Shown: piece after piece, positions 7,377 through 37,782 of the stretch
Layout of the letters: every line of letters begins with the position of its first letter
Position numbering within the stretch: the first letter of the stretch is position 1
NCBI GenBank assembly: GCA_041946865.1
Contig: JBHGBF010000001.1
Location: 51,338 to 115,337, forward strand
Direction of reading: 5' to 3'
DNA length: 64,000 bases
Source: Acidobacteriota bacterium
GTDB lineage: Bacteria > Acidobacteriota > UBA6911 > RPQK01
Translations under genes and position numbers: made by a program
Notes under the pieces: model-generated
Database searches by the model: none
Told to the model about the DNA's origin: nothing
What the model saw: the letters and a program-made list of their open reading frames with translations, nothing else

Positions 7377-7392
7377 TGGCATCCAACTTGCT
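7377..7392 (+). promoter_or_regulatory. Candidate sigma54 promoter upstream of flgF: TGGCAT-CCAAC-TTGCT
   Basis: tggcatccaacttgct matches TGGCAC-N5-TTGCW. Same hexamers as the flhA site. The predicted TSS is only a few nt before the flgF ATG (7407), which is unusual. Confidence 0.4.
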
Positions 7393-15871: not shown

Positions 15872-16303
15872 ATGTCCAGAGAGGTCGCCACCGGACGTTT
15901 CGGCAATGTCCGGTATGAAGACCGTGACGTGATCAGGATGGTAGCGGGCATGCCTGGGTTCGAATCTCTCAGGCAGTTTCTGCTCATTGACAGCACGGAG
16001 TATGAGCCGGTCAAGTTCCTGCAGTCCCTGGAGGAACCACGCATCTCTTTCCCGCTCATCGACCCGCGGCTGGTCCGAAGCGATTACCGGGTGTCGCTCG
16101 ATGCCGCCCAGCAGGAGAGCCTCGGATTGGACCATCCCGGGGAGGGACTGGTCTACTCCATTCTGACGCTGGGTGACAACCCCGCGGAGGTGACAGCGAA
16201 TCTGTTTGCTCCGGTGGTGATCAACCTCGCGACGATGAAGGCCGCACAGATCATCTTGTTTGAGAGCGAATACTCGGTCGAGGAGCCCGTGCTGGGAGGC
16301 TAA
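15872..16303 (+). CDS. fliW: Flagellar assembly factor FliW (CsrA antagonist)
   Basis: [31 protein letters not shown]...FLLID aligns to the FliW N-terminus (MIIDTKYHGQMDVKEQDIIVFPNGLPGFE). An upstream in-frame ATG at 15854 is also possible. Confidence 0.85.
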
Positions 16304-17760
16304 TGCTCGTTTTCACCCGAAAGCCCGGCGAGAGTCTGATGGTCGGTGACGCCGTCGAGATCAGGATCTTGTCCGTTGGCCACGATCAGGTTCGGATAGG
16401 GATCAGCGCCCCGCGAGAGGTCCCGGTCCACCGCCGGGAAATCTACGACTCCATCACGCGCCAGAACCGCCTGGCCTCCAGTTCGGCGACTCCTCCCAGA
16501 GAACTGCTGGAAAGACTCAAGAGGAGTTAAGCCCTTCCGGCCGGATCCCGTGACCCATTCCGTAACGCTTGTTGCCCGGATGATCGACTCTTCGCGAGTG
16601 GCGCCGAGCGTGATCACGAATCCGGAACGCTTGGTGTGGTCGGTGACTGCCGGTGCGGCGTTCCCCGGCGCCAGTAACAGCTCGCAGCGATGGATCCAGG
16701 AAAAAGCTGCCAGCTGCCGGGGATCGGGAAGGCGCAAGATCTGCCCGATACGCGGAAAGAAGTACCGGATTGCCACTGCCTTTTCGGCGCGCGGCTGGAT
16801 CTCCCACGGCTCGACCCGGTTGCCGAGCGCCAGGCGGATGGCAATGCCGAGCATGTCCACTCCGGTCGCCAAGGGAATCTGATCGGTGGCAAACCAGCCG
16901 CCGGACAGGCGCGCCGCCATCTCGATGACCTTGGGACCCTGCGCTGTCAAGACCATGTCTCCTTTGGCTGTCCCCCAGTTGATCCCCAGCACGCGAGCCG
17001 CCTTTTCCGCCAAGGCAACAACCTTCTGCCGGGGAGAGGGCCCGAGAACGCTGGGCATTGTTCCGCCGTTCTCCACGATGAAAGGAGAGAAACGCTCCAA
17101 GTACTCGTAGTTGCGGTCGCTGAATCCGGGCGTGGACGCGAGGGCGCCCAAGAATATCGATTCGGTGCTGATCTGCGGTCCGGCGAGATACTCCTCGACC
17201 ATGAGCCGCCCGGAAGGCGAAAACGCCCGGGAATGCCGGATAGCCCACTCCAGGTTCAGGCCGCGTGTGATCCGGAGAACACCTCGGGCGCCGCGGCTGT
17301 CGACCGGTTTGAGCACGACCGGAAGCCCCCATTCGTGAATGGCCGACACCAGATCGGACACGCAGTTGACGGGCTTGAAGCGGGGAATCGGGATGCCGGC
17401 CCTCAGGAAGTGTTCCTTCATCGCCAGCTTGTCGGTTGCCAGCCTGGCGGTCTCCCAGGAAGGACCGGGCAGGTCCAGAGCCTGCGCCACTGCTGCGACA
17501 GTCCTGGGCACATCGGCAGCCACGCAGAGAATTCCGTCAAGCCGCCGGCGCTTGGAAAATTCGCGCGCCGCCTGCAGGTGGCCCTGCTCATCGTAGGTAT
17601 CGAGCACGCAGGCATGGTCGGCAAGCTTCAGACCTGGCGCCTGGGGATTGCCATCACTCACCACCACGTAGAGGCCCATCTCTTTGGCGCGGCGGATGCC
17701 TGGCACAGCCTCAATCCCCCCACTTACGATCCATAGCGTCTTGGGCTTGCGTGCGGTCAT
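16300..17760 (-). CDS. ATP-grasp domain enzyme, terminal gene of the glycosylation operon; 3' ~230 nt runs antisense across csrA
   Basis: Start [15 protein letters not shown] at 17760 (ATGA overlap with the upstream gene). ATP-grasp fold features ([35 protein letters not shown]). No in-frame stop until 16300. Confidence 0.6.
16303..16530 (+). CDS. csrA: Carbon storage regulator CsrA
   Basis: [48 protein letters not shown] is a near-canonical CsrA. The TAATG junction overlaps the fliW stop. Confidence 0.9.
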
Positions 17761-19013
17761 ACAGCCTCTCTTCGAGCGGCCGGGCATCCGGCCAGTTCTG
17801 ACGCCATCCTTCCGTGCTCTGCCGCCTTGCGGCGCAGGCCAGGGAGCGCCGCGAGGATGCCGGCACGGATCGAGCCGCGATCCCCCCAGATCTCTTGGGC
17901 CCGGCGCTGCAAGAGCGGGAGGTCGAAATCCTCGAGTCTCATGAAGCGGTCTCCGATTGACAGCTCGTCCATGGCCGGTCTGATGTGCCACTCTCCGCCG
18001 GAGGCGAACGGCACCACTCCGTGAATCGCGGCAAAAATCAAGGAGTGCCGGCGGTTGGAGAAGTGCATGTCCAGCAGCGGGAACAACGACAGGATCTGGG
18101 GCAGAGTGTACTTCCCCTGAATCCGATGGGCCGCGCGCGCGTTTCGCATCGCGGCTACGATCTCGTCCGCCACCGGACGGTCGTCCTCATACCGATGGTC
18201 GATGTTGTAGGTGCAGTTGGGGATGAAAAGCAGCTCGGCCCCGAACTCCTCGACCATGTAATCGCACAGCCCGGCCAGCAGCCCTCGGTAGTGGTGCCAG
18301 GTCGCCTCGTCCCAGCTCCAGTAGTGATGGCGGAAATTGATCCCGACCCTGCGGCTGGACCGGAATTGAATTCCTTCGCGTTGCAGAATTGCCCATCCCG
18401 GCGCCGTGTCAAGGACCGGATCGAGTCCGAAGGCGGCGTCGGCAAGGACGGCCGTATTAGCCGTAGGAATCCCCATCTGGTCGAGCACGTCTCGCGAAAA
18501 ACCCTCGCGCAGGGTCACGAGGTCCGCGTTAGTGACGCAGAAGCGCGTCAGCTCCCGGCCCAGCGGCGTCTCGAGTCTGCGCCCCATGTGGATGCAGTAG
18601 AGCATGACCGGCTTCTGCAAAAACCTGGCCAGGGTGATGAGCAACGCGGCGTACGGGGCCAGTCCCCGGTTGAAAGCCAGCGAGATCTCCTGGAAAGGAT
18701 CACCCCCGATGATCAGAAGATCGCACTGCTCGATAGCCTTCCAGATCTTCCTCAGATGCTCGGTCGAGTCGTTCGGATTCAGCCCCCAGAACCAGCGGCC
18801 CAGGCTCTGCGCCTTGCTGTCATGCTCGAGGTTCTTGATCGACTCTACCCGGAAGAACTCGTCCAGCTTGGGACCAGGGTGGCGAGCGAGGAGCGTCAGG
18901 TGGACTTCCGGCATAGCCTCATGAAGCTCCCGGCAGAGCACACTGAGCAGCGCCTCGTCGCCTTGATTCTCAATTCCATACACGCTCGTACCGGCAATGA
19001 CCACTCTCTTCAT
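17757..19013 (-). CDS. Polysaccharide pyruvyl transferase-like protein (PS_pyruv_trans family), paralog 1
   Basis: 418 aa. MKRVVIAGTSVYGIENQGDEALL...CDLLIIGGDPF...RHSLIFAAIHGVVPF. ~45% identical by eye to the adjacent paralog. Family assignment from motif memory. Confidence 0.55.
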   Translation of the reverse strand: MKRVVIAGTSVYGIENQGDEALLSVLCRELHEAMPEVHLTLLARHPGPKLDEFFRVESIKNLEHDSKAQSLGRWFWGLNPNDSTEHLRKIWKAIEQCDLLIIGGDPFQEISLAFNRGLAPYAALLITLARFLQKPVMLYCIHMGRRLETPLGRELTRFCVTNADLVTLREGFSRDVLDQMGIPTANTAVLADAAFGLDPVLDTAPGWAILQREGIQFRSSRRVGINFRHHYWSWDEATWHHYRGLLAGLCDYMVEEFGAELLFIPNCTYNIDHRYEDDRPVADEIVAAMRNARAAHRIQGKYTLPQILSLFPLLDMHFSNRRHSLIFAAIHGVVPFASGGEWHIRPAMDELSIGDRFMRLEDFDLPLLQRRAQEIWGDRGSIRAGILAALPGLRRKAAEHGRMASELAGCPAARREAV

Positions 19014-19030
19014 TAGAAACCTCCGTTGAC

Positions 19031-20272
19031 TCAGGATTCCCTCGCTCGTTGAATAACAAGATCGGCCGCGCGGGCCGAGTGTTCGCGTGCTTTTTGCCGC
19101 AAAGCCGGCAGGACGGGGCGGAGCCGGTCCGACAGGGTGGCGCGCTTGACCCAGGCGTCCAGGCAGAGGGATTCCAGCTTTCCAGGGCCGAATTCGTCGT
19201 AAGGGATGAAGAACTCGCTCAATCCCAGTTCATCCATAAACGGGGTCATATGCCACGCCTCCCCGATTCCTACACCGGGAATTCCGTGGATGGCGCCGAA
19301 AATGACCGAGTGCCTGCGATTGGCGATAACCAACGAAAGAAGCGAGAACAGTGAAACCATTGCGTCTACACAATGGCGGCCCTTTATTTGAAAAGCCCGA
19401 TCCTGGCGCCGCATCTGCCGCACAATTTCTTCGGCCGCCGGGCGGTCGTCCTCGTACTTGTGATCCAGATCATAGGTGCAGTGAGGGATGAACAGGATGT
19501 CGGCGCCGGCCTTTTCAACCAGCGCGTCACAGACGGCTGCTATCGTCCGGGAGTGGAAATTCCAGTCGCCCTGGTTCCACTTCCAATACATATGCCGGAA
19601 AGTCACCCCGATCAGAGGCCTGGCAGGAACGGGGATGCTCTCCTTTTCCAAAACCAGAAGCGCTTGTTGCGGTGTTCCGGGCGCCAGACCGAAGGCCGGG
19701 TCCGCCAGGGCGACAATATTCTCGCCGGTCAGCCCCAGCGTCTCCAGCACGCGTTTGGAAAACTCCTCTCTGACCGTTACCAGACTGGCGTTCCCGGCGC
19801 AGAATCTGGCGATCTGTCTTCCGTACTCGGTCTGCAAAGGACGCCCGACATGGATGCCCAGAAACATCACGGGGATTCCCAGGAACTTCGCCAGCGTAAC
19901 GAGGAGCGCCGCATACGGCGCGGGGCCCCGGTATAGATCGAGGGTGACTTCCAAAAACGGGTCCGCCCCGATCACCAGCAGGTCTGAGGAACCGATGGTG
20001 TCGGCAATTCGGCGCAAGTGATCGGTCGAGTCTCCGGCGTTCAACCCTCGAAACCATCTCCCCAGGCTTGACTTCTTGTTGGCGTGATCAAGATTGGGGG
20101 TTGACTTCACTCCGAAGGCCTCATCAACCTCGGGCCCCGGGTGTCTGGCGAGCAGTACGAACTCTGCCTCCGGCACTGCCTCGCGAAGCCCCCGGGTGAA
20201 GACGGTGAGCATGGCATCGTCGCTCAAGTTGTTGAGGCCATACACGCTAGGCCCCGCTATCGTTATTCTCAT
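19031..20272 (-). CDS. Polysaccharide pyruvyl transferase-like protein, paralog 2
   Basis: 413 aa. MRITIAGPSVYGLNNLSDDAMLTVF...SDLLVIGADPF...RHSVIFGAIHGIPGVGI. Tandem duplicate of 17757..19013. Confidence 0.55.
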   Translation of the reverse strand: MRITIAGPSVYGLNNLSDDAMLTVFTRGLREAVPEAEFVLLARHPGPEVDEAFGVKSTPNLDHANKKSSLGRWFRGLNAGDSTDHLRRIADTIGSSDLLVIGADPFLEVTLDLYRGPAPYAALLVTLAKFLGIPVMFLGIHVGRPLQTEYGRQIARFCAGNASLVTVREEFSKRVLETLGLTGENIVALADPAFGLAPGTPQQALLVLEKESIPVPARPLIGVTFRHMYWKWNQGDWNFHSRTIAAVCDALVEKAGADILFIPHCTYDLDHKYEDDRPAAEEIVRQMRRQDRAFQIKGRHCVDAMVSLFSLLSLVIANRRHSVIFGAIHGIPGVGIGEAWHMTPFMDELGLSEFFIPYDEFGPGKLESLCLDAWVKRATLSDRLRPVLPALRQKAREHSARAADLVIQRARES

Positions 20273-21446
20273 GTCGTCTCCGGTTCCCTCTCGCTTGCTT
20301 TTCCCCTTGGCCCCTTTGCTCCTTGACCCCTTTTGTCCCTCGAAAGCAACTTGCAGCTATATCTGCACGGTTGATACCGTACGCGCGCGGCGTGCCCCCG
20401 TGAGAGACCTGATTCCGCACGGCCAGTCGTGACTCTATGCTGCGACGGATCCTTTCCGCCCCTCGTCCGTCAATCAGCCTGCTCGCGCGCGCAGACATGT
20501 CGCGCCGCCTTTTGGAATGGCTGCAGAGCTCGCTGACAAGCCCGACCAGCTTCCCTTCCTCCAGCTCGGAGTACAGTCCTGCCCCCACGGTCGCTCCTGC
20601 CTCCACCATGAACTGCCCCGATATCTGGTGGTCCAGCGACCAGTAAATGTGGATTGCGGGAACTCCGAACGAGGCCAGTTCCAGGGCTGTGACACCGTAT
20701 GAAGCCACCGCCAGGTCGGCGCCCTCCATCAGCTCTGCCGGTTCTTCCGGGGACTCGATGATCCGAGCTGGAAGCGGACAATCCCCTATTGCCCTTCGAA
20801 GCTTTGCATGGTCTCGGAAGCCTGGCCCGATCATCACATCCAAGGCGGCAGAAACCGACAGGCGCGACAGCAAGGCGACGGTGCGGGCGCTCATGCCATA
20901 AGGGTCACTGCCACCCATCGTGATCAGGATCCTGCTCACACGGGTGAAATCCGCTTGCGGTGTGCGAGCCCGGGGGACCAACCCCAACAGCGCGTACTCG
21001 GGGCCTGCGAACAGTTCGCCCCGGTATCCTCCCCACTCGAGGGCGTCAGCCCCGTGATGGGAAGCGTAGAAAGCCAGATCACAATTCAGCCGCCTTGGTG
21101 AAGGGTCATCAATCGTGACCACGAGGATGCCGCGCTCACTGGCCCAGGAAATGATCGAGGCGGGCAAATCGTCGCGAACATCGAGGACCAGGACCCCCGG
21201 TTGGCCTTCGGCCAAGACTCCTTGAAACCAGCCGGAGTACGCGTCGGGGGGTGCCGGGACGACGGGGAGCCCCTTTCTTTGCAGCCACTCCAAGCCCTCG
21301 GCGCTGTCCCGCACGACAAAGGAAATCTCGACTCCAGGCCAGTGTTGCTGCATCTCGCGAGCAAGGGAGGAGCACCGGGTCAGATGCCCCATCCCCAATC
21401 GGAAAGAACCGTCACATCTGAATAGGACCTTCGCCCGAGTGTTCAT
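20247..21446 (-). CDS. pseG: PseG-like UDP-sugar hydrolase (pseudaminic acid pathway, MurG-like fold)
   Basis: N-terminal FRCDGSFRLGMGHLTRCSSLA matches the PseG signature (RADASxxIGxGHxMRCLxLA). C-terminal glycosyltransferase-28 domain. Confidence 0.6.
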   Translation of the reverse strand: MNTRAKVLFRCDGSFRLGMGHLTRCSSLAREMQQHWPGVEISFVVRDSAEGLEWLQRKGLPVVPAPPDAYSGWFQGVLAEGQPGVLVLDVRDDLPASIISWASERGILVVTIDDPSPRRLNCDLAFYASHHGADALEWGGYRGELFAGPEYALLGLVPRARTPQADFTRVSRILITMGGSDPYGMSARTVALLSRLSVSAALDVMIGPGFRDHAKLRRAIGDCPLPARIIESPEEPAELMEGADLAVASYGVTALELASFGVPAIHIYWSLDHQISGQFMVEAGATVGAGLYSELEEGKLVGLVSELCSHSKRRRDMSARASRLIDGRGAERIRRSIESRLAVRNQVSHGGTPRAYGINRADIAASCFRGTKGVKEQRGQGEKQARGNRRRHENNDSGA

Positions 21447-22417
21447 AGCGCCTGCCAGGTTGAGGGATTGACCAGATCCGGGTCATCGACACGAAGAACT
21501 TGTGAGATCTGGGTCGAGAGTGTAAGCGGCCCCTTTCGCAGGGCCGCCAGCGCAGCTCGGAGCTCGCAAACTGTTCTCGGGCCTGCCAGAACGGTGGAAA
21601 TCGACGAGACACCGAGGCAATAGCGGACGGCCACCTCCGGTAGGTCCTTCCATCCGGTCTCCAGCAGCTTCAGAACGCGTTCGACCGCCAGCTGCAGAGG
21701 CCGCAGCTGCGGCCCCAGCCACCGGCCCTTTGGAGAAAGAACCCCCTTGAGAAGCGCCGAGCGGGCCATAATCCCTACGCCGGATTGAAAGGCCCTGGGC
21801 AAGACTCGCTCAGCCATCTGCTGGTCCAACAGATTGAACGCAACCTGCAGGACTCGAATCCGGGGATCGCAGAGAGCGGCGAGCGCGTTGTGCTCGCCGT
21901 AGACTGAGGCCCCGATAAGCCCGATTTTTCCCTGCTCGCTAAGCCGGGAAAGGGTCTCGAGCATGTCCCCGCGCTGAATCACCTCCCCGGTTGCGTTGTG
22001 GATTTGAACGATGTCGAGGAAATCGCGCCGCAGCTTCCTGAGGCTGGATTCTACCGAGCTCTCGAGCGATTTGCGGAGGTCCCGCGGATCGATCCGGCAA
22101 CCGGCCGGGTTCGGGCCAGCGGGTACTGCCACCTTGGTGGCGAAGTGACAGCCCCGGTTGTCCCCCAGGGCTTCACCCAGCAGTTCCTCGCTCATCCCGT
22201 AGGCAGGGGCGGTGTCGAACAGAGTGATCCCCGCGTCAGCGGCGATCTTCAGCAACCGGATCGCCTGTTGGCGCGAGGGTCGCCTCCAGCCGCCCGGCTG
22301 GCGGATTCCATAGTCTAGCCCGAGGGAGACGGTTCCCATCGAAAGGGCGGAAACCATGAGCCCTGTCTCTCCCAGGGGTCGGTACTGTATTGTCGGACCA
22401 GGCGCCGGTGTGTTCAT
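21443..22417 (-). CDS. Aldo/keto reductase family oxidoreductase
   Basis: Start MNTPAPGPTIQYRPLGETGLMVSALSMGT. AKR motifs (GITLFDTAPAYG, IGASVYGE). ATGA-type coupling on both sides. Confidence 0.7.
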   Translation of the reverse strand: MNTPAPGPTIQYRPLGETGLMVSALSMGTVSLGLDYGIRQPGGWRRPSRQQAIRLLKIAADAGITLFDTAPAYGMSEELLGEALGDNRGCHFATKVAVPAGPNPAGCRIDPRDLRKSLESSVESSLRKLRRDFLDIVQIHNATGEVIQRGDMLETLSRLSEQGKIGLIGASVYGEHNALAALCDPRIRVLQVAFNLLDQQMAERVLPRAFQSGVGIMARSALLKGVLSPKGRWLGPQLRPLQLAVERVLKLLETGWKDLPEVAVRYCLGVSSISTVLAGPRTVCELRAALAALRKGPLTLSTQISQVLRVDDPDLVNPSTWQAL

Positions 22418-23736
22418 GTCAGGCGATAGAAACCTCTTTCCGCGGCGGTCTCCGCTGGTTGGAGCTCCCCGGAGGCGAGCAGCAACAAGGCCTCGGCTAC
22501 TGCCTCCACGTATCGGTCCACATCGGCGTCGGTATGGGCGAAACAAGGCTTGAACTGCGAGTACGCCAGGAATCCCCGGTCGAGCATCAGTCTGGTGAAA
22601 AGCGTGCGAAGCACGTGGCTGTTCGGATGACGGAAGCTGAAGTGACTCAGGCTGGGCAGTCCGCCGACCTCGATCTCCAGGCCGGCGGCGGCTGCCGCCC
22701 GTCCCCAGCCCTGCTGGACCCGACGCCCAATCCTCTTCAGGTGCTCCGCGACCTTCTCCCGGCGGTGTTTTCTGATTGTGGCCAGGGCGGCTGCAGGACC
22801 GATCCGTTCCGTCCAGTTGGTACTGCTGATGAAGGTAGTCTTGGCCGCCTCCATGACGTCGGTCCTGCCGATGACTGCGGCCATGGCGTATCCGTTCGCC
22901 ATGGCCTTGGCAAAGACAGCGACGTCGGGCTCGATCCCCAGCAGGAGGTGAATTCCACCCGAGGTCATCCGAAAGCCGGTCGTGATCTCATCGAAGACGA
23001 GCACGGCCCCCACCCTCTGGGCAATCTGGCGGACGCGCTGGATGAAACCATTTTCAGGGGGGTGTTCACGCTGCGGTTCCATGACGATAGCGGCCAGCTC
23101 GGATCCGTGGGCAGCGACGATTTCCTCCAACTCTTCGATCCGGTTGTAGTGGAACGGAAAGGCCGTTCCTTTCAGCGAGCGGGGCACTCCGCGAGGGTCG
23201 AGTCCCGGCAGGAGATGCCCGTCCAGGGCGTCGTGGTCGCCCAGGTTGGCGGCGAGGTACCAGTCGGTCCAGCCGTGGTACCCGCAAAAGGCCACCTTGT
23301 CCCGGCCAGTGGACGCGCGGGCGAGGCGCACGGCGATGGACATCGCCTCCCCGCCGGAGCGGGCAAAACGAACCATTCCGGCCCAGGGGTGGATCTCGCA
23401 CAGCAGCTCCGCCAGCTCCACTTCTTCGGGGGCATTGAGAGTGCAGAGGACGCCGCGGCGAAGGGCAGAGATGGCCGCCTCGTCCACCTCCGGATCGGCG
23501 TAGCCGAGAACGCAAGCCCCGATGCCCATCATGCTCATGTCGGTAAAGACTCGTCCGTCCAGATCGGTGACCCGCACCCCCTGGGCGGACTGATAGTAAG
23601 CCGGCCATCCCTCGGGGAGGTACAGCTCGGGACGCTTGGACAGAAGCTGCGTTCCGCCCGGGATCAACTGCCTGGCGCGCTGGTAGAGTCTTTCTCCCGC
23701 CGTTCCTTTCTGCCGGCCCTCGTTCGTTGACCTCAT
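22414..23736 (-). CDS. Class-III (glutamate-1-semialdehyde aminomutase-like) PLP aminotransferase
   Basis: Start MRSTNEGRQ at 23736. Class-III aminotransferase features (GYHGWTDWY, VFDEITTGFR, VAVFAKAMANGYAMAAVIG). Such GSA-AT homologs are common in flagellin-glycosylation islands. Confidence 0.7.
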   Translation of the reverse strand: MRSTNEGRQKGTAGERLYQRARQLIPGGTQLLSKRPELYLPEGWPAYYQSAQGVRVTDLDGRVFTDMSMMGIGACVLGYADPEVDEAAISALRRGVLCTLNAPEEVELAELLCEIHPWAGMVRFARSGGEAMSIAVRLARASTGRDKVAFCGYHGWTDWYLAANLGDHDALDGHLLPGLDPRGVPRSLKGTAFPFHYNRIEELEEIVAAHGSELAAIVMEPQREHPPENGFIQRVRQIAQRVGAVLVFDEITTGFRMTSGGIHLLLGIEPDVAVFAKAMANGYAMAAVIGRTDVMEAAKTTFISSTNWTERIGPAAALATIRKHRREKVAEHLKRIGRRVQQGWGRAAAAAGLEIEVGGLPSLSHFSFRHPNSHVLRTLFTRLMLDRGFLAYSQFKPCFAHTDADVDRYVEAVAEALLLLASGELQPAETAAERGFYRLT

Positions 23737-23752
23737 CAGTTCCCTCTTCCTG

Positions 23753-24574
23753 TCACCGTGTCGCACCGCCTTCCCACACGCGGTCATAGCCTTCGCGTCC
23801 GATGAACTGAGCGTTTAATGCCGCCAACTCAGGCCGTCGCTCGATCAATTTCAGGATGTCGTGCATGGAAAAGGCTGGGTTCTTGGCGTAAAGCTCGCGA
23901 TAGATCTCCCTCGCCAGGTCCAGATCGGCTCCATTGTCCACCGTCCACCGGTATCGGGAGTAGTCGGCAGGAGCAGTCAAGGCGGCGGTACGAAAGCGTC
24001 CAGGGACGCGCCAGATGTAAGGCGTCACGTGCTCCCGGTCCGAAGGCTCAATAGCCTCTTCCCAGGCGCGACGAAGCGCGTTGAAACTGAAGCATTCGGC
24101 GTCCAATCCGTCCGGATAGCGGCCTGAGTCGAGGAAGACGGCGCCGGCGCCGGTCGCCACTCCCAGGTGTTCCCAATTCCCTTCGCCGTAGAACCGGATC
24201 AACTCAGAAATCAGTGGCCCGTCAACGAAGGGGCAATCCCCCGTGACGCGGATGATCGGGTCTGCGTCGAATATTCGGGCTGCCTGGTAAAAACGATCCA
24301 GGACATCGTCCTCGGACCCCCTGAAAACAGGTATGGTTTCGCGCCGGCAGTAGTCCGCAAGCGGTTGGTTGGCGACATGGGTGGACGTGGCCACGACGAC
24401 CAGTCCCACCTCCGGTACCTGGCGAAGACGCGTTACGATGTGCCAGATCATGGGTTTTCCGAGGATCTCCGCCATGACCTTGCCTTTGAGGCGGGTCGAC
24501 CCCATGCGCGCTTGAACCATGGCTACTGACGGCATCGGGCCTCCCTTTCCCACTGTTGTCGCACTTGACGACAA
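23753..24574 (-). CDS. pseF: Acylneuraminate cytidylyltransferase-family protein (PseF/SpsF-like CMP-sugar synthetase)
   Basis: VAMVQARMGSTRLKGKVMAEILGKPMIWH is the SpsF/NeuA-type nucleotidyltransferase N-terminus. 273 aa. Confidence 0.65.
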   Translation of the reverse strand: MSSSATTVGKGGPMPSVAMVQARMGSTRLKGKVMAEILGKPMIWHIVTRLRQVPEVGLVVVATSTHVANQPLADYCRRETIPVFRGSEDDVLDRFYQAARIFDADPIIRVTGDCPFVDGPLISELIRFYGEGNWEHLGVATGAGAVFLDSGRYPDGLDAECFSFNALRRAWEEAIEPSDREHVTPYIWRVPGRFRTAALTAPADYSRYRWTVDNGADLDLAREIYRELYAKNPAFSMHDILKLIERRPELAALNAQFIGREGYDRVWEGGATR

Positions 24575-25455
24575 GGACGAAGTCCATCGGCTGGATCAGC
24601 ACGCCACTGCCGGTCGGCCAGCTCCGCCCCGGCGGGAGTCTTGGCGCCGCTGCCATCAGCGGCCAGGCCGTCGCGGACCAGTCGAATGGCCTTTTCAGCG
24701 TCCCGGGGCAGCCAGCAGTGACCGTGCGCGTACTCGGGGCCCCTTCCATCCAGATCCAGGTGGAATTCGAGCAGGCTGACCTGCCACCGGTGGACAGCCC
24801 TGAGCCAGACAGCGGTCTGTGCCGTGTGATCCGACCAGCCAACCGGACAACGGTAGCGTTTCCGGAGGGTTTCGATAGCCGAAAGATTCGCTTCCTGGAT
24901 GGGGGTCGGATATCCGGAAACGCAGTGCAGCAGGAGCAGGTCCGAGCAGCCCGCGCAGCGGAGCGCCTGCACCGCGTGGTCGATCTCACCGCAATCCGCC
25001 ATGCCGGTAGAGAGGACCACTGGCTTGCCAGTCCTTGCGCACGTCTCGAGCAGCTCATCCCAGAGGAGTTCGTAGGATGCGATTTTCAGAAAATCGACCC
25101 AGGGGACAAGCTCGGCCACGCCTTCCAGATCGAAGGCCGTGCAGGAGAACAGGAGCCCTCTGCGGCGAGCCAGCTCCGCCAGTTCAGGGATAAACGACAC
25201 CGGGAGCTCCCACTCCCGGCGCTGCCGATGGTCCTTACTCGCTGCGAGGATTTCCGGTGCGAACAGGCGATCCAAGCGGAAGAGCTGGAATTTGACCGCA
25301 TCACAGCCGATCCGCGCGGCCGTCTCGACGAACTCGAGGCAGCGCCCAAGGTCCTGGCGGTGATTGCTGGACACTTCTGCAACGAGCATCGGACCTTTGA
25401 CTGCGTCTATCCAGGATTGGCTGCTATCGAGCACTTCAGTGTGATCGGTAGGCAT
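24523..25455 (-). CDS. pseI: NeuB-family nonulosonate synthase (PseI-like), apparently lacking the C-terminal SAF domain
   Basis: LVAEVSSNHRQDLGRCLEFVETAARIGCDAVKFQLF...KIASYEL...VGWSDHT is the NeuB TIM-barrel domain. 310 aa. No SAF/antifreeze-like tail recognised. Confidence 0.7.
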   Translation of the reverse strand: MPTDHTEVLDSSQSWIDAVKGPMLVAEVSSNHRQDLGRCLEFVETAARIGCDAVKFQLFRLDRLFAPEILAASKDHRQRREWELPVSFIPELAELARRRGLLFSCTAFDLEGVAELVPWVDFLKIASYELLWDELLETCARTGKPVVLSTGMADCGEIDHAVQALRCAGCSDLLLLHCVSGYPTPIQEANLSAIETLRKRYRCPVGWSDHTAQTAVWLRAVHRWQVSLLEFHLDLDGRGPEYAHGHCWLPRDAEKAIRLVRDGLAADGSGAKTPAGAELADRQWRADPADGLRPCRQVRQQWEREARCRQ

Positions 25456-26632
25456 GGGTCACCTTTCGAACGGCTTCGATGACATCGCAGACGTCGCGCT
25501 CGGTCATGGCCGGAAAAATCGGCAGGGAAATGATTTCCGAATACGCTTTTTCGGCTACCGGGCAGTCACCCGGACGCGTGCCAAACCGTTTCTGGTAGTA
25601 GGGATGGAGGTGCACCGGGATATAGTGGACATTCACCCCGATTCCTTCTGCCCTCAGGGCTTTGAAGATCTGGTCCCGGCTCGCTCGGAAGAAATTCGGA
25701 TCCAGGCGGATCACATACAGGTGATGAGCATGATTCGCCCAGGGCGCCCGGCCGGGCAAACGGACCCCCGCAATTTCACGAAAGGCCTCGTCATAGCGGC
25801 CGGCAATCTCGCGTCTTCTCGAAATGTAGGCCGCCGCCCGCTCGAGCTGTACCCGTGCCAAGGCGCACTGAAAGTCGGTAAGCCGGTAGTTGAAACCCAG
25901 ATCCACCATTTCGTAAAACCAGGTGCCGTTCTCCATCCGCTGCCGGTGATCCTGATCGATTCCGTGGTTGCGAAACCGGCGAATCGTTCGGGCCAGATCC
26001 GGTTCATCCGTGGTGACCACTCCGCCCTCGCCCGAAGTGATCAGCTTCACGGGATGCATGCTGAATGCCGTGGCCCGCGCCAGTGTCCCTACGGGGACAT
26101 CGCGATAGCCGGCGCCGAGCGAGTGACAAGCGTCGGCGATGAGAAACAGGGAATGGGACCGGGCCAGGTCGTGTAACACGCCGTAGTCGCAGGGCTGGCC
26201 GGCGTAGTCCACCGGAATCACGGCTTTGGTACGCTGCGTGATGCGCCTCTCGACGTCGCGCGGGTCGATCAGCAAGGTGTCGTCCAACACGTCGGCAAAC
26301 ACCGGTCTTCCTCCTTGGAAGACTACTGCGTTGGCCGTCGCCGCAAACGTCATCGAAGGGACGATCACTTCATCTCCTTCGCCGATTCCAGTTGCCTTGA
26401 CACAGGCGTGAAGCGCCGCCGTTCCGCTGCTGACAGCAACCGCATGCAGGGCCCCCGTCAGCCGCGAAAATTGGGTTTCGAAGGCGTCCACGTCGGGCCC
26501 GGTAGTCAACCATTCCGAGCGCAGCACGCGAGAAACCTGGTCAATCTCACCGTCTCCCAGCCAGGGTCTCCCGTAGGGGAGAAACGCCTCCCGGACCGGT
26601 TTACCTCCCTGCAGAGCTAATCGGGATGACAT
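25436..26632 (-). CDS. pseC: DegT/DnrJ/EryC1-family aminotransferase, PseC-like (UDP-4-keto-6-deoxy-sugar transaminase)
   Basis: Start MSSRLALQGGKPVREAFLPYGRPWLGDGEI at 26632. PLP-lysine region AFSMHPVKLITSGEGG. 398 aa. Immediately downstream of pseB. Confidence 0.8.
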   Translation of the reverse strand: MSSRLALQGGKPVREAFLPYGRPWLGDGEIDQVSRVLRSEWLTTGPDVDAFETQFSRLTGALHAVAVSSGTAALHACVKATGIGEGDEVIVPSMTFAATANAVVFQGGRPVFADVLDDTLLIDPRDVERRITQRTKAVIPVDYAGQPCDYGVLHDLARSHSLFLIADACHSLGAGYRDVPVGTLARATAFSMHPVKLITSGEGGVVTTDEPDLARTIRRFRNHGIDQDHRQRMENGTWFYEMVDLGFNYRLTDFQCALARVQLERAAAYISRRREIAGRYDEAFREIAGVRLPGRAPWANHAHHLYVIRLDPNFFRASRDQIFKALRAEGIGVNVHYIPVHLHPYYQKRFGTRPGDCPVAEKAYSEIISLPIFPAMTERDVCDVIEAVRKVTHAYRSH

Positions 26633-27653
26633 TGGTCTTCTCTCCCACCAGCCGTAACAGTTCGTCTTCCGACAACCACCGCTCGTTGGTGTCACTGGTG
26701 AAGGTGAAACCGGCTGGTGTGGGCTGACCGTGGACTCTCTCGGTCCTTCCCCAGCCGGAATACTGCGGCTCGATCACGAACAGATCGTCGGTGGCGACCG
26801 TGTGCCGAGCCTCGTCGAAAGAAATGAGGACTTCGTGCAGTTTTTCGCCCGGCCGGATGCCCGTGTACTCGATCCGACAGTCAGGTGCGATTGCCCGCAC
26901 GATGTCAATCACGCGCATGCTTGGAATGCGGGGAACAAACACTTCGCCGCCTTTCATCAGCCCCAGGGAGCGCACCACCACGTCCACCGCCTGCTCCAGC
27001 GTCATCCAAAAACGGGTCATCCGGGGATCGGTGACGGTGATCCTGCCGGTCGCCCGTTGCGCCGTGAGCAGGGGAATGAAACTCCCGCGACTCCCGATCA
27101 CGTTTCCGTACCTCACGCAGCTGAACCTGGTAATCTTCCCCCCGGCATAGGCATTCCCCTGGACAAAGAGCTTTTCCGCGCACAGCTTGGTGGCCCCGTA
27201 CAGGTTGACGGGGTTTACCGCCTTGTCGGTACTGAGGGCGATGACCTTGGGAATCCGGCAGTCGATGGCAGCATCGATGATGTTCTGGGCGCCGATGACA
27301 TTCGTCTTCACCGCCTCAAACGGGTTGTACTCGCAGGCGGGCACCTGTTTGAGAGCGGCGGCATGGACGATAACGTCGATTTCTGCCTGAAAGGCACGAT
27401 ACAGGCGGTCCTTGTCCCGGACATCGCCCAGAAAGAAGCTCACCCGGGGGTCCTGCAGCTGCAATGCCAGCTCGTGTTGTTTCAACTCGTCCCGGCTGAA
27501 AACGATGATTCTCTTGGCGCGATGCCTCTCCAAGGCAAGCCGAATGAATTCGCGTCCGAACGATCCGGTCCCCCCCGTCAAGAGCACGGTCTTCCCCCAA
27601 AGGGGCTTTTCTGAAGGGCCATGGACTTTGGTGGTAGTCGTTGCCTTTTTCAT
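26601..27653 (-). CDS. pseB: UDP-GlcNAc 4,6-dehydratase (inverting), PseB-like
   Basis: KTVLLTGGTGSFGREFIRLAL...STDKAVNPVNLYGATKLCAEK is the PseB/FlaA1 SDR signature. 350 aa. Confidence 0.85.
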   Translation of the reverse strand: MKKATTTTKVHGPSEKPLWGKTVLLTGGTGSFGREFIRLALERHRAKRIIVFSRDELKQHELALQLQDPRVSFFLGDVRDKDRLYRAFQAEIDVIVHAAALKQVPACEYNPFEAVKTNVIGAQNIIDAAIDCRIPKVIALSTDKAVNPVNLYGATKLCAEKLFVQGNAYAGGKITRFSCVRYGNVIGSRGSFIPLLTAQRATGRITVTDPRMTRFWMTLEQAVDVVVRSLGLMKGGEVFVPRIPSMRVIDIVRAIAPDCRIEYTGIRPGEKLHEVLISFDEARHTVATDDLFVIEPQYSGWGRTERVHGQPTPAGFTFTSDTNERWLSEDELLRLVGEKTNVIPISSAGR

Positions 27654-27676
27654 CCTGTTCGCTTGGAAACCTCCGG

Positions 27677-29602
27677 CTAAATCCAGGCCTGCCGTGGGCC
27701 CCCTTGCTGTCCCTGCAAAGCGCGAATCGCCTGGTTCAGCAACGGGAGAAACCGGCGCAGGTTCCTGGAGACTTCCAGATAGAACTGGTGTGATTGACGG
27801 CTGGTCTCCGAGTCCGAACCATCCGTCTCCTGGTTGCTCAGGATCCCGTAAATGGTCGAAAGCACGTAATGAAGCGGTTGCTGGTACTCCTTTGAGCGTT
27901 TCAGTGAACGGTCCACGGCGCTGAGCTGGCGGAGAAGGCTCGAAACGTTGCAGGGCTTTTGGTGCTCGACATGTTCGACCAGAACGGAGCTGAGACGGGC
28001 AGCCTTAGTACACTGTCCAGCCAGCCGATTCAGACGCCGCTCGACGTCCTTGAGGAAGTTCACGAGTCCTTCAATGTTGAAGTGATGTCCTGCGAAGAGG
28101 GTTTGCTCCGCTTCCGTGATCCTCGCGGAAATGTCATTGACACAATGCCGGGAGAGTGCCTCCTTCAATGAAAGGAGGAGCGTTCCTTTGATCCGTGCGC
28201 CCCCTTCCGTTGCATCAATGACGGTCCGTTCAGGGCCGATCGCCCGGATCACGCTCTCAAACCAATGCAGAAAAGATAGGAGTTGCCGGTCCGTCAGCAC
28301 CGGATTCCCGTCGATACCCTCAACCCAGGCCTGGTGCCGGCCCGACCAGACGCGCCAGTCCTTCTCGTCGGGATCACTTTCCCCCGACGCCTGTCCGTCA
28401 GTCCATCGGCGGGGGATCTTGTAACGGAAATCTTTCCCGTGGGTCCCGCGCGCGTGGCTGAGCCCCCCTGTGTACGCCAGGTCTTGCCCGATCAGAATGA
28501 TGGGATCACAGCCGAAGCGGTAGGCCAGAGAGAGACACACGTTGGCCACCGAGGGCCCGATCTTCACCAGTCCGACCGCCGTGCTGCTGAAGCGCTCCAG
28601 CCAGAGATTGCCCTCATTGATCAGCATCAGCGCCTTTCGACCCTGATACTCTTCCGCTACCCGGTAATGAACGGCTGGATCGAAAACAAGGACGGGCTCC
28701 CTGACGGTGAGGCCCCGAAAATGCGACTCGTAGTTGGCCTCGTTTCCATCGAGAGTGACGATGAAATCAGGAGCGATCGACTTCTCAGCGAGAAGCCGGG
28801 AAGTCGTTCCGGTGGCGATGATAACCGCCTTGCCTTTGGCCTGGTGCAGCAAATCCACGTTCCTGCTCAGGGAAGGGCCGGCCGAGACGATAATGGCTGG
28901 CAGACCCGCAAAGCAGCCGAAGATCGCACCCACCGGCGCCGCTTCGGCGAGGCGTGGCAGATTCCTGAGCAAGTTGGTCTGCCAGAGCCAGGCTGCGCTC
29001 AGCACCGTCGCCCGGTCTACCAGCAGGCTGTTCAATTCGCGGCTGATCTCCGTCGAAAAAGCCTGGAATTCACCGGCCAGAAGCCTGGTATAAACCGGAA
29101 GCTTGAGATACCGGATGTTTTTCCACCGGCTGCCGTGAACCACGTATTGTTCTTTGAAAGAATCCCAGTCACGGCACAGGACGACGCGCGGATCGGCCAG
29201 GGCACGTTGAGCCACTGGAAGGGCACGGGCCTCCGCCAGGATCTCGTCATCGGGTTCAACGACAAACACTACGTTCCCGGTCCCAGCCTTCCTCAGCAAC
29301 GCCTCGAGGTGGTAGCCTGACCCCAGCCCGAAGAGCACCAGCAGTTCCTTCTCGCCGAAACTCTGGCTCGACGCCCACTGCGATGCTTCCTCTTGGGGAT
29401 CGTAGCTGCTGTTCAGGAAGACCGACTGACCGCCACGGCTGACTCTTAGTACCGGGTCACCATTCCGAGCGCTGACAACTTTGCATGTCCCCGCAAGCAT
29501 CTCAGTTTGTCCCTTTAGCGAATTCGGCCGACCAGCTGTCAAGCAGCGGCCGCAGCTCGTAGCAGACAATGTCGCCGGCCAGGCCATAGTCCTGATGCTC
29601 AA
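27677..29602 (-). CDS. maf: Motility accessory factor (Maf/DUF115) flagellin nonulosonate glycosyltransferase-like protein
   Basis: 641 aa. DUF115/MAF_flag10-like core (GLPAIIVSAGPSLSRNVDLL...AVIIATGT...PDFIVTLDGNEANYE...ILIGQDLAYTGG). Adjacent to pse genes and flagellins. N-terminal ~35 aa may not be translated. Confidence 0.6.
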   Translation of the reverse strand: MSIRTMAWPATLSATSCGRCLTAGRPNSLKGQTEMLAGTCKVVSARNGDPVLRVSRGGQSVFLNSSYDPQEEASQWASSQSFGEKELLVLFGLGSGYHLEALLRKAGTGNVVFVVEPDDEILAEARALPVAQRALADPRVVLCRDWDSFKEQYVVHGSRWKNIRYLKLPVYTRLLAGEFQAFSTEISRELNSLLVDRATVLSAAWLWQTNLLRNLPRLAEAAPVGAIFGCFAGLPAIIVSAGPSLSRNVDLLHQAKGKAVIIATGTTSRLLAEKSIAPDFIVTLDGNEANYESHFRGLTVREPVLVFDPAVHYRVAEEYQGRKALMLINEGNLWLERFSSTAVGLVKIGPSVANVCLSLAYRFGCDPIILIGQDLAYTGGLSHARGTHGKDFRYKIPRRWTDGQASGESDPDEKDWRVWSGRHQAWVEGIDGNPVLTDRQLLSFLHWFESVIRAIGPERTVIDATEGGARIKGTLLLSLKEALSRHCVNDISARITEAEQTLFAGHHFNIEGLVNFLKDVERRLNRLAGQCTKAARLSSVLVEHVEHQKPCNVSSLLRQLSAVDRSLKRSKEYQQPLHYVLSTIYGILSNQETDGSDSETSRQSHQFYLEVSRNLRRFLPLLNQAIRALQGQQGGPRQAWI

Positions 29603-29891
29603 GCGCCTCGACCAGAGGCTTCAAGGTCAGGGGCAACGCGGAGAGATCCAGCGACAATCCCTTTTCAGCCTGCACGGGATGGGTCAGCTGGATGGCCTCT
29701 GACACGGTTCCCAGACCTTCGAGGAGTCGCTTCAGCAGTGCGATTCCTTCATCGAATTGCCCCAACTGGAAGTGGGTGTGAACTTCTACACACGCCCGAC
29801 TCAGCTCCTGGTTGTAAACCTGCGCCTCCGAGATCGCCTGGAGCATCAGTTCTGTATCGTTCTGATTTCCCATCGCCATTGCCCTTCGCAA
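29502..29891 (-). CDS. Hypothetical protein, first ORF of the glycosylation operon (overlaps maf 5' end by ~100 nt in another frame)
   Basis: 129 aa helical ORF with no recognised motif. Coding status uncertain. Confidence 0.35.
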   Translation of the reverse strand: MRRAMAMGNQNDTELMLQAISEAQVYNQELSRACVEVHTHFQLGQFDEGIALLKRLLEGLGTVSEAIQLTHPVQAEKGLSLDLSALPLTLKPLVEALEHQDYGLAGDIVCYELRPLLDSWSAEFAKGTN

Positions 29892-30010
29892 GCCGCGTGC
29901 CAGCTTTACGGCGGACGCTGGTAACCGCGCACTGCCGCCATAAAATCTTCGGAATTAAACATTTGTCGCGGCTCTTTAGGACAGGTGGGAGCTTTGGCTC
30001 GCAATGACAG

Positions 30011-37641: not shown

Positions 37642-37680
37642 TTTCTTCCTCCTTGAAAGACTCTGGCTTCCTTGCCTGAA
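37642..37680 (-). promoter_or_regulatory. Flagellin-1 5'UTR: GGCAAGGAAGCC hairpin plus GGA-containing SD (CsrA-site architecture)
   Basis: mRNA sense reads CAGGCAAGGAAGCCAGAGUCUUUCAAGGAGGAAGAAA-AUG. Identical GGCAAGGAAGCC element in all three flagellin leaders. Confidence 0.5.
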
Positions 37681-37782
37681 TCGTGTCGACCCGACAATGG
37701 TGATTTACGATCCATGATCCAGGTGCCCCAGCCCCAAGCCCAAGCCGATCATCAATCACCAGCGTCAGGCCAGGGCCCGCGC

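Follow-up and report, generated by a model that had tools for sequence, protein, structure and literature searches.

A candidate sfm-type flagellin glycosylation locus with a Pse-type front end and no detectable PseH in an Acidobacteriota bacterium

Introduction

Flagella, capsules and S-layers can carry nonulosonic acids, which influence motility as well as recognition by phages and by the immune system; many derivatives of these sugars are structurally unsolved. Here we analyze two divergent operons, lying within a large flagellar regulon, that are predicted to make such a sugar and attach it to flagellin. They are found in a stretch of 64,000 nucleotides from an Acidobacteriota bacterium (GenBank assembly GCA_041946865.1, contig JBHGBF010000001.1, positions 51,338 to 115,337 of the forward strand), hereafter the window. 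The closest described system is the sfmABCDE cluster of Shewanella oneidensis MR-1, on which the modification of flagellin depends (Bubendorfer et al., 2013, PMC3765264). This cluster encodes a 290-aa NeuB-family synthase, a 581-aa IlvB-like thiamine pyrophosphate (TPP) enzyme, a 255-aa short-chain dehydrogenase/reductase (SDR), a 395-aa S-adenosylmethionine (SAM) methyltransferase and a 412-aa ATP-grasp protein, and clear orthologs of PseH, PseG, PseI and PseF were reported to be lacking in S. oneidensis (PMC3765264). The glycan consists of a 274-Da, mono-N-acetylated unit resembling pseudaminic acid (Pse), linked to serine, and an outer moiety of 236, 250 or 264 Da that bears O-methyl groups, which together amount to 510-538 Da. 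The inner unit behaves as if it carried a basic group, and the outer moiety is easily lost in mass spectrometry (MS). Mutants in sfmA to sfmD lose the modification, whereas the mutant in sfmE, the ATP-grasp gene, keeps part of it (PMC3765264). In our literature search for the combination of an ATP-grasp protein, a TPP enzyme and nonulosonate synthesis, this was the only study found; the cassette has been studied genetically only in S. oneidensis, where the structure of the glycan is unsolved.

We propose that the locus described here directs a Maf-dependent, sfm-type O-glycosylation of flagellin, in which a Pse-like nonulosonate is made without PseH, activated with cytidine monophosphate (CMP) and then elaborated, a reading that we favor with modest confidence, a little above even. 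The original prediction for this DNA, made from the sequence, had described a minus-strand operon with a Pse core, no PseH and a set of unusual accessory enzymes. Below, we examine the genes that carry this proposal, follow the same cassette through other genomes and weigh the alternatives.

Results

A Pse-type front end followed by non-canonical enzymes

From position 16300 to about 29873, the minus strand carries twelve consecutive open reading frames (ORFs) with a third-position GC content of 0.69-0.78 (Table 1). Start codons were picked from the Shine-Dalgarno context and from the point where homology begins, and families were assigned by Pfam and NCBIfam profile scans, using the NCBIfam equivalog cut-offs. 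These scans bore out the twelve genes, their order and the families first proposed for them. The claim that the genes abut or overlap was also essentially right: with the most probable starts, the genes overlap at seven junctions, by 4-32 nt, and ATGA overlaps make up three of these. The longer ones lie at pseB/pseC (32 nt), pyrT1 and the PseG-like gene (26 nt), pseC/neuB (20 nt) and neuB/cytidylyltransferase (13 nt). Overlaps of 4 nt join the aminotransferase to the aldo-keto reductase (AKR; ATGA), the AKR to the PseG-like gene and pyrT2 to the ATP-grasp gene, and the four remaining junctions are gaps of 1, 23, 16 and 17 nt.

The first two biosynthetic enzymes are of the Pse type. PseB scores 461.5 bits against TIGR03589 (cut-off 407.75) and PseC 430 bits against TIGR03588 (cut-off 423.5), whereas the corresponding models for legionaminic acid (Leg) synthesis are far lower (LegB, 44.8 bits; LegC, 226 bits). 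Both proteins exceed their equivalog cut-offs, and we read the locus as one for Maf-type glycosylation of flagellin whose front end is of the Pse type.

The enzymes that follow depart from the canonical pathway. The short NeuB-family protein (NeuB-short), which we presume to be the core nonulosonate synthase, consists of the NeuB domain only (PF03102, 187 bits) and has no SAF domain. It remains below the NeuB and PseI equivalog cut-offs (TIGR03586, 155.6 bits against 340.25), its best matches in the PDB are SpsE (1vli) and the 290-aa protein 6ncs, and it keeps the metal-site motifs GWSDHT and EFHLD. Other phyla have orthologs of 284-291 aa at 54-62% identity, and some orthologs are fused to a CTP_transf_3 domain. 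The cytidylyltransferase itself (PF02348, 99.7 bits) matched no PseF model at E<=1e-3 in NCBIfam, where it gave only weak matches to KdsB subfamilies (at most 65 bits, below the cut-offs); its orthologs occur fused to NeuB or to PseG-like proteins. The PseG-like protein scores 103.3 bits against TIGR03590 (cut-off 153.55), is 399 aa long compared with about 280, and has no Pfam match. A weak match to the MurG C-terminal domain reaches residue 335, and an acetyltransferase of the GNAT family fused to the C-terminus was considered and rejected, as the approximately 64 aa left beyond that residue are too few. Of the proposed Pse core, therefore, PseB and PseC stand, while NeuB, the cytidylyltransferase and the PseG-like protein fall below the PseI, PseF and PseG cut-offs and resemble SpsE, SpsF and SpsG, with the NeuB lacking SAF. 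Judged by these profile matches, the locus is not a canonical six-enzyme CMP-Pse pathway: PseH is absent from the locus, and the PseI and PseF equivalog cut-offs are not reached.

Absence of a GNAT acetyltransferase

The original prediction had noted that no PseH was recognizable, and a profile search for a GNAT domain across the locus upheld this. No acetyltransferase family was found by Pfam or NCBIfam in the 16 called genes of the two operons, nor in 30 other proteins of the window, which make up most but not all of its remaining ORFs. Likewise, when the alternative frames between positions 16000 and 34000 were cut at their stops into 149 segments no shorter than 60 aa, these contained no GNAT domain, the only family detected there being CsrA. 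As a positive control, the same approach detected a GNAT protein of 149 aa in a canonical Pse locus from Firmicutes (L090), where it sits between the cytidylyltransferase and the gene for a NeuB protein with SAF. In the cassettes related to this locus (see below), no recurrent GNAT was found among the annotated recurrent clusters, and none recurred in a set of 149 small ORFs outside the core that were taken from about 80 loci.

A divergent operon belongs to the same system

Across an intergenic region of about 300 bp, four translationally coupled genes run on the plus strand (30181-33508; Table 1). The first encodes an iron-containing alcohol dehydrogenase (Fe-ADH) that stays below all NCBIfam equivalog cut-offs, with ErcA, PsrA and lactaldehyde reductase at about 150-175 bits; among these, PsrA, an alcohol dehydrogenase of phosphonate clusters, reaches 162 bits, and sulfoacetaldehyde reductase gives 140 bits. 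The start of decA overlaps the stop of the Fe-ADH gene (ATGA). The decA and decB products resemble the two halves of sulfopyruvate and phosphonopyruvate decarboxylases, with DecA at 76 bits for TIGR03297 and 56 bits for TIGR03845 (PDB 9iz3_A, 6.8e-12) and DecB at 62.6 bits for TIGR03846 and 61.5 bits for TIGR03297 (PDB 9iz3_B, 6.9e-16). All these scores are below the cut-offs, and both proteins are far from the phosphonopyruvate decarboxylase equivalog, for which TIGR03297 requires 312.5 bits. The fourth gene encodes a second NeuB-family synthase (NeuB2), which is below the NeuB and PseI equivalog cut-offs (177.9 bits with the PseI model). NeuB2 orthologs are 51-57% identical, compared with about 30% between the NeuB-short and NeuB2 groups, which thus form separate orthologous groups; both His-containing metal-site motifs are kept in the two proteins.

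The membership of this operon follows from a metagenomic contig (L087; ENA ERZ27267505 k141_345998), where 12 of the 16 genes in the two operons have their orthologs, at 32-58% identity, within one collinear operon: PseB, PseC, NeuB-short, the cytidylyltransferase, the PseG-like protein, both pyruvyl transferases, Fe-ADH (38%), DecA (51%), DecB, NeuB2 and the ATP-grasp protein. The aminotransferase, the AKR, Maf and the DUF8042 protein have no counterpart there. Because L087 unites most biosynthetic genes of the two operons, the divergent operon is taken to be part of the same system, and the boundary first drawn around the minus-strand genes was wrong. NeuB2 lies between decB and the ATP-grasp gene in L087, and its ortholog closely follows decB in four further loci. 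In three of these (L009, L049 and L074), the Fe-ADH, decB and NeuB2 genes are just upstream of the ATP-grasp gene, with NeuB2 immediately before it; in the fourth (L032), they are in the same cassette, farther upstream.

A recurrent cassette around the ATP-grasp family

The last gene of the minus-strand operon encodes an ATP-grasp protein with ATP-grasp_3, LAL_C2 and ATPgrasp_N domains, whose best structural match is the L-amino-acid ligase (LAL) 3vot. The protein, which is the hallmark of the cassette, is unusually well conserved, and the best 120 homologs listed are 54-62% identical to it. With each GTDB species represented by a single genome, a scan returned 207 relatives, from which 80 loci at 45-62% identity were kept; their ORFs were clustered, representatives were annotated and partners were counted as loci. 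The 80 loci come from Acidobacteriota, Desulfobacterota and Geobacter relatives, Gammaproteobacteria, Chloroflexota, Actinomycetota, Planctomycetota, Gemmatimonadota and Syntrophomonadaceae, and from two genomes labelled archaeal that are described below.

A set of partners recurs around the ATP-grasp gene. A GH57-like protein of about 670 aa, usually encoded immediately downstream, is present in 60 loci, followed by an SDR (50), the PseG-like protein (46), a cluster of class-I SAM methyltransferases of about 405 aa (40), NeuB-short (32), PseB (28) and PseC (27). The TPP enzyme occurs in three forms, namely an acetolactate synthase (ALS)-like protein of about 571 aa (28 loci), a split transketolase (24) and a split decarboxylase (4), and it is encoded at most four genes upstream of the ATP-grasp gene in 43 of the 56 loci that have at least four upstream genes. 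NeuB-cytidylyltransferase and cytidylyltransferase-PseG fusions both occur, the latter in 17 loci, and in most cassettes PseC is followed by NeuB or the PseG-like gene, directly or past a single gene. The median sizes of the cassette proteins (291, 571, 251, 405 and 412 aa) nearly match those of the Sfm proteins. The accessory genes of the window, which the original prediction had treated as an unusual assembly, are modules of a recurrent ATP-grasp cassette.

Within the window, a tblastn search with the cassette clusters gave no credible match to an SDR, to an ALS-like or transketolase TPP enzyme, to a methyltransferase or to a GH57-like protein. In their place, the window has the divergent Fe-ADH, decAB and NeuB2 genes, a pair of pyruvyl transferases, the aminotransferase and AKR, and separate genes for the cytidylyltransferase and the PseG-like protein.

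Several features of the related cassettes were observed along the way. The GH57-like gene is the most constant neighbor of the ATP-grasp gene and often overlaps its stop (for example at 2672-4684 in L009), and its product matches GH57 only partially, over residues 34-145. In four loci (L010, L012, L036 and L059), a second ATP-grasp paralog upstream of the main one is followed by two conserved proteins of about 341 and 353 aa that have no Pfam family, which together form a recurrent sub-module. At 4236-5852 in L088 and among the small ORFs of related loci there are hints of further types of decoration: some cassettes include arylsulfotransferase or sulfotransferase genes (three sulfotransferase matches), and others an asparagine-synthase-like amidotransferase that adjoins a pyruvyl transferase gene. 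The ATP-grasp family is also present in two metagenome-assembled genomes (MAGs) labelled archaeal, one of Methanothrix (L022) and one of a Marine Group I thaumarchaeote (L031); the former has a full cassette of PseB, PseC, NeuB, cytidylyltransferase, PseG-like, methyltransferase, SDR, TPP, ATP-grasp and GH57-like genes.

Accessory enzymes of the minus-strand operon

The extra enzymes belong to the families originally named for them and not to unrelated ones, as seen for the LAL-type ATP-grasp protein above and for the two pyruvyl transferases. PyrT1 and PyrT2 match PF04230 (PS_pyruv_trans) over their full length with 103.6 and 72.3 bits (cut-off 25.3), while remaining below the equivalog cut-offs of CsaB (85 bits against 213) and WcaK (38 or 25 bits against 399). 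The two paralogs are 47% identical in pairwise alignment, and PyrT2 is 58-61% identical to the second pyruvyl transferase of L086 and L087. These two loci, both in a polysaccharide context with a Wzx-type flippase, carry pairs of pyruvyl transferase genes within the same cassette, and single ones are found in the cassettes of L088 and of a flagellin-linked Desulfolithobacter locus (L089). PyrT1 had no sequence match in the PDB at E<=0.01; its AlphaFold model (pLDDT 92.7) has a fold resembling that of GT-B glycosyltransferases. An attempt to assign its function with Foldseek was set aside, as it returned only generic GT-B enzymes (UDP-GlcNAc 2-epimerases and heptosyltransferases) and did not discriminate among them.

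The class-III aminotransferase (PF00202, 139 bits) has its best NCBIfam matches among glutamate-1-semialdehyde aminomutases, below the cut-off. Among solved structures, it comes closest to 6k8h, to 7lm0 and 7lld, which are GenB C-6' sugar aminotransferases, and to glutamate-1-semialdehyde aminomutase. It is present in 17 of 71 cassettes, in 12 of which it directly follows the cytidylyltransferase or NeuB-cytidylyltransferase gene and precedes the AKR or PseG-like gene; none of the 17 loci with a fused cytidylyltransferase-PseG has it. Orthologs of the AKR (PF00248, 121 bits) are found in 11 related loci. By gene order, the aminotransferase and AKR appear to be an optional insert that separates the cytidylyltransferase gene from the PseG-like gene. 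A fusion of a cytidylyltransferase with an AKR has been reported in a Pse cluster of Moritella (PMC7371886).

The ATP-grasp gene overlaps csrA

The ATP-grasp ORF has a C-terminal extension of 76 aa that is not found in homologs. An alignment of 18 sequences has 120 invariant columns, and the homologs stop near residue 410, where csrA ends; csrA, which the original prediction had not noted, lies wholly antisense within the extension (Table 1). In three syntenic loci of Acidobacteriota (L004, L005 and L014), the order is ATP-grasp, GH57-like, in some cases Dus, CsrA, FliW, FlgL and FlgK. This arrangement suggests a deletion of the GH57-like and Dus genes that joined the ends of the ATP-grasp gene and csrA as the simplest account. 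The possibility that the extension is a remnant of the GH57-like gene was rejected, as tblastn found no GH57-like similarity in the window; two apparent GH57-like matches proved to be mis-called ORFs fused to ATP-grasp sequence.

Flagellar setting, transferase and promoter candidates

The locus lies between flgK, flgL, fliW and csrA on one side and fliS, fliD and three flagellin genes on the other. The former side further includes flhF, flhG, fliA, fliM, fliN, flgF/G, a flgA-like gene, flgH, flgI, flgJ, flgM and flgN, and the latter a response regulator gene, cheX, motA and flbD. The three flagellins named in the original prediction are present and encoded in tandem (36778-39575, minus strand). 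They are about 285 aa long and 82-85% identical to one another, with 24-33% Ser plus Thr in their central regions, and are the presumed targets of glycosylation. The Maf protein matches PF01973 (MptE-like) with 147.1 bits (cut-off 34.6), PseD partially with 87 bits and Maf_flag10_N weakly with 19.6 bits (cut-off 23.5); it is a putative flagellin nonulosonate transferase.

The small protein encoded upstream of Maf belongs to a helical family of about 120 aa with 100 cluster representatives at E<=1e-3. Our own Pfam scan gave no match for it, and PF26154 (DUF8042) is recorded as a precomputed match on an identical public protein (P0190). Since genes of this family are translationally coupled between maf genes in two Firmicutes loci (2614-2964 in L090 and 3309-3665 in L091), the DUF8042 protein is probably a partner of Maf. 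A structural identity was sought by a profile search of the PDB and dropped, the only matches being designed helical proteins at E>0.01.

A sigma54-type -24/-12 element lies in the divergent intergenic region, facing the minus-strand operon (Table 1). It is the sole perfect match to TGGCAC-N5-TTGC in the window, and two sites with one mismatch (221-235 and 7377-7391, plus strand) lie just ahead of flagellar operons and point toward them. The number of sigma54 matches in the whole window is not above that expected from shuffled sequence, and a sigma54-type promoter for the operon is only a lead. A scan with the sigma28 consensus gave matches at chance frequency, with none in the divergent intergenic region.

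Two further observations concern the neighborhood. An ORF of 118 aa directly downstream of fliS (33514-33870, minus strand) has no family match and, by position, could encode a FliT-like chaperone. Past the flagellar region (47389-56039, plus strand), the window carries a gene of the erythromycin esterase family, a regulator of the AraC/periplasmic-binding type, an FAD oxidoreductase with a Golvesin_C domain and an ORF of 1225 aa (52362-56039).

Table 1. Positions of the glycosylation genes and of neighboring features in the window.
Feature	Position	Strand	Remarks
DUF8042 protein, small and helical, first gene	29502-29873 or 29502-29846	-	123 aa (public call) or 114 aa
Maf	27677-29500	-	begins 1 nt past the DUF8042 stop
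PseB, inverting UDP-GlcNAc 4,6-dehydratase	26601-27653	-	
PseC, C4 aminotransferase	25436-26632	-	DegT family
NeuB-short, SAF-less NeuB-family synthase	24523-25455	-	310 aa; SfmA/SpsE-like
Cytidylyltransferase, SpsF-type	23753-24535	-	CTP_transf_3
Class-III (omega-type) aminotransferase	22414-23736	-	Aminotran_3; glutamate-1-semialdehyde aminomutase-like
AKR, aldo-keto reductase	21443-22417	-	
PseG-like GT-B protein, putative UDP-sugar hydrolase	20247-21446	-	399 aa
PyrT1	19031-20272	-	PS_pyruv_trans paralog 1
PyrT2	17757-19013	-	PS_pyruv_trans paralog 2
LAL-type ATP-grasp carboxylate-amine ligase	16300-17760	-	
csrA	16303-16530	+	75 aa; wholly antisense inside the ATP-grasp C-terminal extension
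Sigma54-type -24/-12 element, TGGCACGCGGCTTGC	29888-29902	-	divergent intergenic region
Fe-ADH, iron-containing alcohol dehydrogenase, first gene	30181-31356	+	Fe-ADH 135 bits, plus ADH_Fe_C
decA, alpha subunit of split TPP-dependent 2-oxoacid decarboxylase	31353-31898	+	ComD/Ppd-like
decB, beta subunit of split TPP-dependent decarboxylase	31891-32367	+	ComE/Ppd-like; overlaps decA by 8 nt
NeuB2, second NeuB-family synthase	32360-33508	+	NeuB 224.6 bits, plus SAF
Flagellin	36778-37641	-	Flagellin_N and Flagellin_C domains
Flagellin	37783-38640	-	Flagellin_N and Flagellin_C domains
Flagellin	38715-39575	-	Flagellin_N and Flagellin_C domains

Discussion

A proposed route

According to their profile scores, PseB and PseC would convert UDP-GlcNAc to UDP-4-amino-4,6-dideoxy-L-AltNAc. 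Family membership and the gene fusions described above suggest that the PseG-like protein would then remove UDP, that the SAF-less NeuB would condense the sugar with phosphoenolpyruvate (PEP) and that the SpsF-type cytidylyltransferase would form the CMP-sugar. For the later steps, genetic linkage points to the ATP-grasp protein as the enzyme that would form an amide, most likely between the un-acetylated C4 amine (N7 of the nonulosonate), the usual target of PseH, and a small polyhydroxy acid. This acid may be supplied by the divergent operon, whose NeuB2, split TPP decarboxylase and Fe-ADH would replace the TPP enzyme and SDR of most cassettes. A chemically coherent though speculative route would lead from PEP and glyoxylate to 4-hydroxy-2-oxoglutarate by a NeuB2-catalyzed aldol step, to malate semialdehyde by TPP-dependent decarboxylation and to 2,4-dihydroxybutanoate by Fe-ADH reduction. 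In the O1 O-antigen of Vibrio cholerae, this acid N-acylates a 4-amino-4,6-dideoxy sugar.

The two PEP-dependent pyruvyl transferases might cap diols of the side chain, again to judge from linkage. Pse5Ac7Ac (5,7-di-N-acetylpseudaminic acid) has no vicinal or 1,3-diol able to take a ketal, and pyruvylation is therefore more likely on a side chain; the 1,3-diol of 2,4-dihydroxybutanoate could accept a pyruvate ketal. In the last step, Maf would act together with the DUF8042 protein to attach the completed sugar to Ser/Thr residues of the three flagellins, and the operon may be expressed from the sigma54-type promoter.

Extended to the cassette family at large, this scheme would make the ATP-grasp protein and the TPP enzyme the mark of a PseH-independent branch of nonulosonate synthesis, in which the C4/N7 amine is acylated in an ATP-dependent manner by a polyhydroxy acid from thiamine-dependent C-C chemistry and capped by methyl ethers or pyruvate ketals. 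We regard this generalization as tentative, and on balance doubtful.

Several points weigh against the proposal of a PseH-free, sfm-type flagellin glycosylation locus. The SDR, the methyltransferases and the GH57-like protein are missing from the window though they are common partners elsewhere, and the abnormal 3' end of the ATP-grasp gene, taken together with these missing partners, may indicate a system that has been trimmed or is partly defective. A PseH could be encoded elsewhere in the genome. Beyond the homologs of PseB and PseC, no enzyme of the cassette is biochemically characterized, and every step after PseC is therefore inferred. By analogy with S. oneidensis, the partial modification kept by the sfmE mutant suggests that the ATP-grasp protein may be peripheral and not a substitute for PseH, and the easy loss of the outer moiety in MS is more in keeping with a glycosidic or ester linkage than with an amide. 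We also tried to map the formulae of the 236-264 Da moieties (C9-C11) onto glyceroyl or dihydroxybutanoyl groups and abandoned this, as the compositions do not match C3-C4 acyl groups, and the proposed acid is not backed by them. Lastly, the likeness of NeuB-short to the Bacillus subtilis SpsE of the Leg pathway leaves Pse stereochemistry less certain.

Alternative readings

The alternative that survives best is that the ATP-grasp protein amidates a carboxylate (C1 of the nonulosonate or that of a pyruvate ketal) with an amine made by the aminotransferase, or builds the outer moiety, leaving the C7 amine free. The apparently basic character of the 274-Da unit and the partial modification in the sfmE mutant speak for it (PMC3765264), as do the resemblance of the class-III aminotransferase to the aldehyde-aminating GenB and the aldehyde that a TPP decarboxylase would give. 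However, the aminotransferase is found in only 17 of 71 cassettes and is missing from L087 despite the Fe-ADH, decAB, NeuB2 and ATP-grasp block there, and in 12 of its 17 occurrences it lies beside the cytidylyltransferase or NeuB-cytidylyltransferase and the AKR or PseG-like genes, not beside the ATP-grasp gene. We consider this alternative unlikely.

It is less probable still that the locus uses the canonical Pse5Ac7Ac route with an N-acetyltransferase encoded outside the window, the extra enzymes making a separate sugar or substituent that becomes joined to the Pse on the flagellin. PseB and PseC are indeed canonical, only 64 kb of the genome are covered here, and the outer moiety of S. oneidensis comes off easily in MS, which is the behavior expected of a separate glycosyl unit. 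Set against this are the lack of a recurrent GNAT in about 80 cassettes, in which PseC is mostly followed by NeuB or a PseG-like gene within one gene, the single acetyl group of the S. oneidensis nonulosonate (PMC3765264) and the non-canonical nature of NeuB, the cytidylyltransferase and the PseG-like protein alike.

We give a similarly low probability to a nonulosonate of the legionaminic type, or another stereoisomer, made by SpsE/F/G-like enzymes. The best solved relative of NeuB-short is B. subtilis SpsE, the cytidylyltransferase is of the SpsF type, and Leg synthesis by the sps genes starts from UDP-linked precursors (PMC7439481), but both PseC and the inverting, 5-epimerising PseB score above their equivalog cut-offs and leave the LegB and LegC models far behind.

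Finally, it is very unlikely that the product of the divergent operon is a head group of the phosphonate or sulfonate kind (2-hydroxyethylphosphonate or isethionate through Fe-ADH, 2-aminoethylphosphonate or taurine through the aminotransferase) that the cytidylyltransferase activates for attachment to a glycan: the best NCBIfam and PDB matches of DecA and DecB are phosphonopyruvate and sulfopyruvate decarboxylases, and Fe-ADH matches PsrA and sulfoacetaldehyde reductase, but all these scores are far under the equivalog cut-offs, no PEP mutase or sulfolactate/cysteate enzyme was found in the scanned genes of the window or in the alternative frames at 16-34 kb, and the block always comes with a NeuB-family aldolase, near the ATP-grasp gene, which a phosphonate route does not explain.

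Implications

The nearly constant linkage of the ATP-grasp gene to a TPP enzyme and a dehydrogenase, the lack of a recurrent PseH and the swappable modules amount to a testable biosynthetic logic and not a one-off curiosity. The interchangeable parts are, on the one hand, an ALS-like enzyme, a transketolase or a decarboxylase with NeuB2 and, on the other, methyltransferases or pyruvyl transferases. The two operons of the window, or the single operon of L087, offer a compact gene set for heterologous reconstitution. If the PseH-independent branch were true, it would mean a new class of nonulosonate derivatives and a new role for ATP-grasp enzymes in more than 200 species-level genomes, spread over many bacterial phyla and the two MAGs labelled archaeal.

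Comparison with known systems

The pyruvyl transferases of the window share with CsaB and WcaK the full-length PF04230 match and the predicted GT-B-like fold. They differ in scores far under the equivalog cut-offs and in the acceptor, which cannot be unmodified Pse5Ac7Ac. The Leg pathway of B. subtilis (SpsC-G and SpsM; PMC7439481) has in common with the window an SpsE-like synthase, an SpsF-type cytidylyltransferase, an SpsG/PseG-like protein and UDP-linked precursors. It differs in its acetyltransferase SpsD, in an SpsE that has SAF, in placing Leg on spores and in having no ATP-grasp or TPP module. With the canonical CMP-Pse5Ac7Ac pathway of Campylobacter and Helicobacter, the window shares the PseB and PseC equivalogs, a NeuB-family synthase, a CTP_transf_3 cytidylyltransferase, a Maf-family protein and the flagellar placement, whereas it lacks PseH, its synthase lacks SAF, its cytidylyltransferase is no PseF equivalog, its PseG-like protein is below the cut-off and 120 aa longer, and nine additional enzymes are present.

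The contig L087 stands closer. It is a polysaccharide-type cassette with 12 orthologs of the window genes in one operon, and it differs in its GH57-like protein, its methyltransferase, its context of a Wzx-type flippase and Wzz and the fusion of its cytidylyltransferase to the PseG-like protein, as well as in having no Maf, flagellin, aminotransferase or AKR.

Like the window, the sfm cluster of S. oneidensis combines a NeuB (about 290 aa) that has no SAF domain with a TPP enzyme, a dehydrogenase and an ATP-grasp protein (about 410 aa in sfm), next to maf and pseB/pseC genes and small flagellins of about 270-290 aa. In the window, a split ComDE/Ppd-like decarboxylase stands for the IlvB-like enzyme and Fe-ADH for the SDR; there is no SAM methyltransferase, and a SAF-containing NeuB2, two pyruvyl transferases, a class-III aminotransferase and an AKR are added. 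The heavily derivatised nonulosonate foreseen by the original prediction is a reasonable expectation by this analogy, since the architecturally equivalent sfmABCDE yields a two-part glycan of 510-538 Da (PMC3765264). The locus is best filed as a variant of the genetically known sfm-type cassette, an equivalence drawn from domain architecture and protein sizes and not from alignment.

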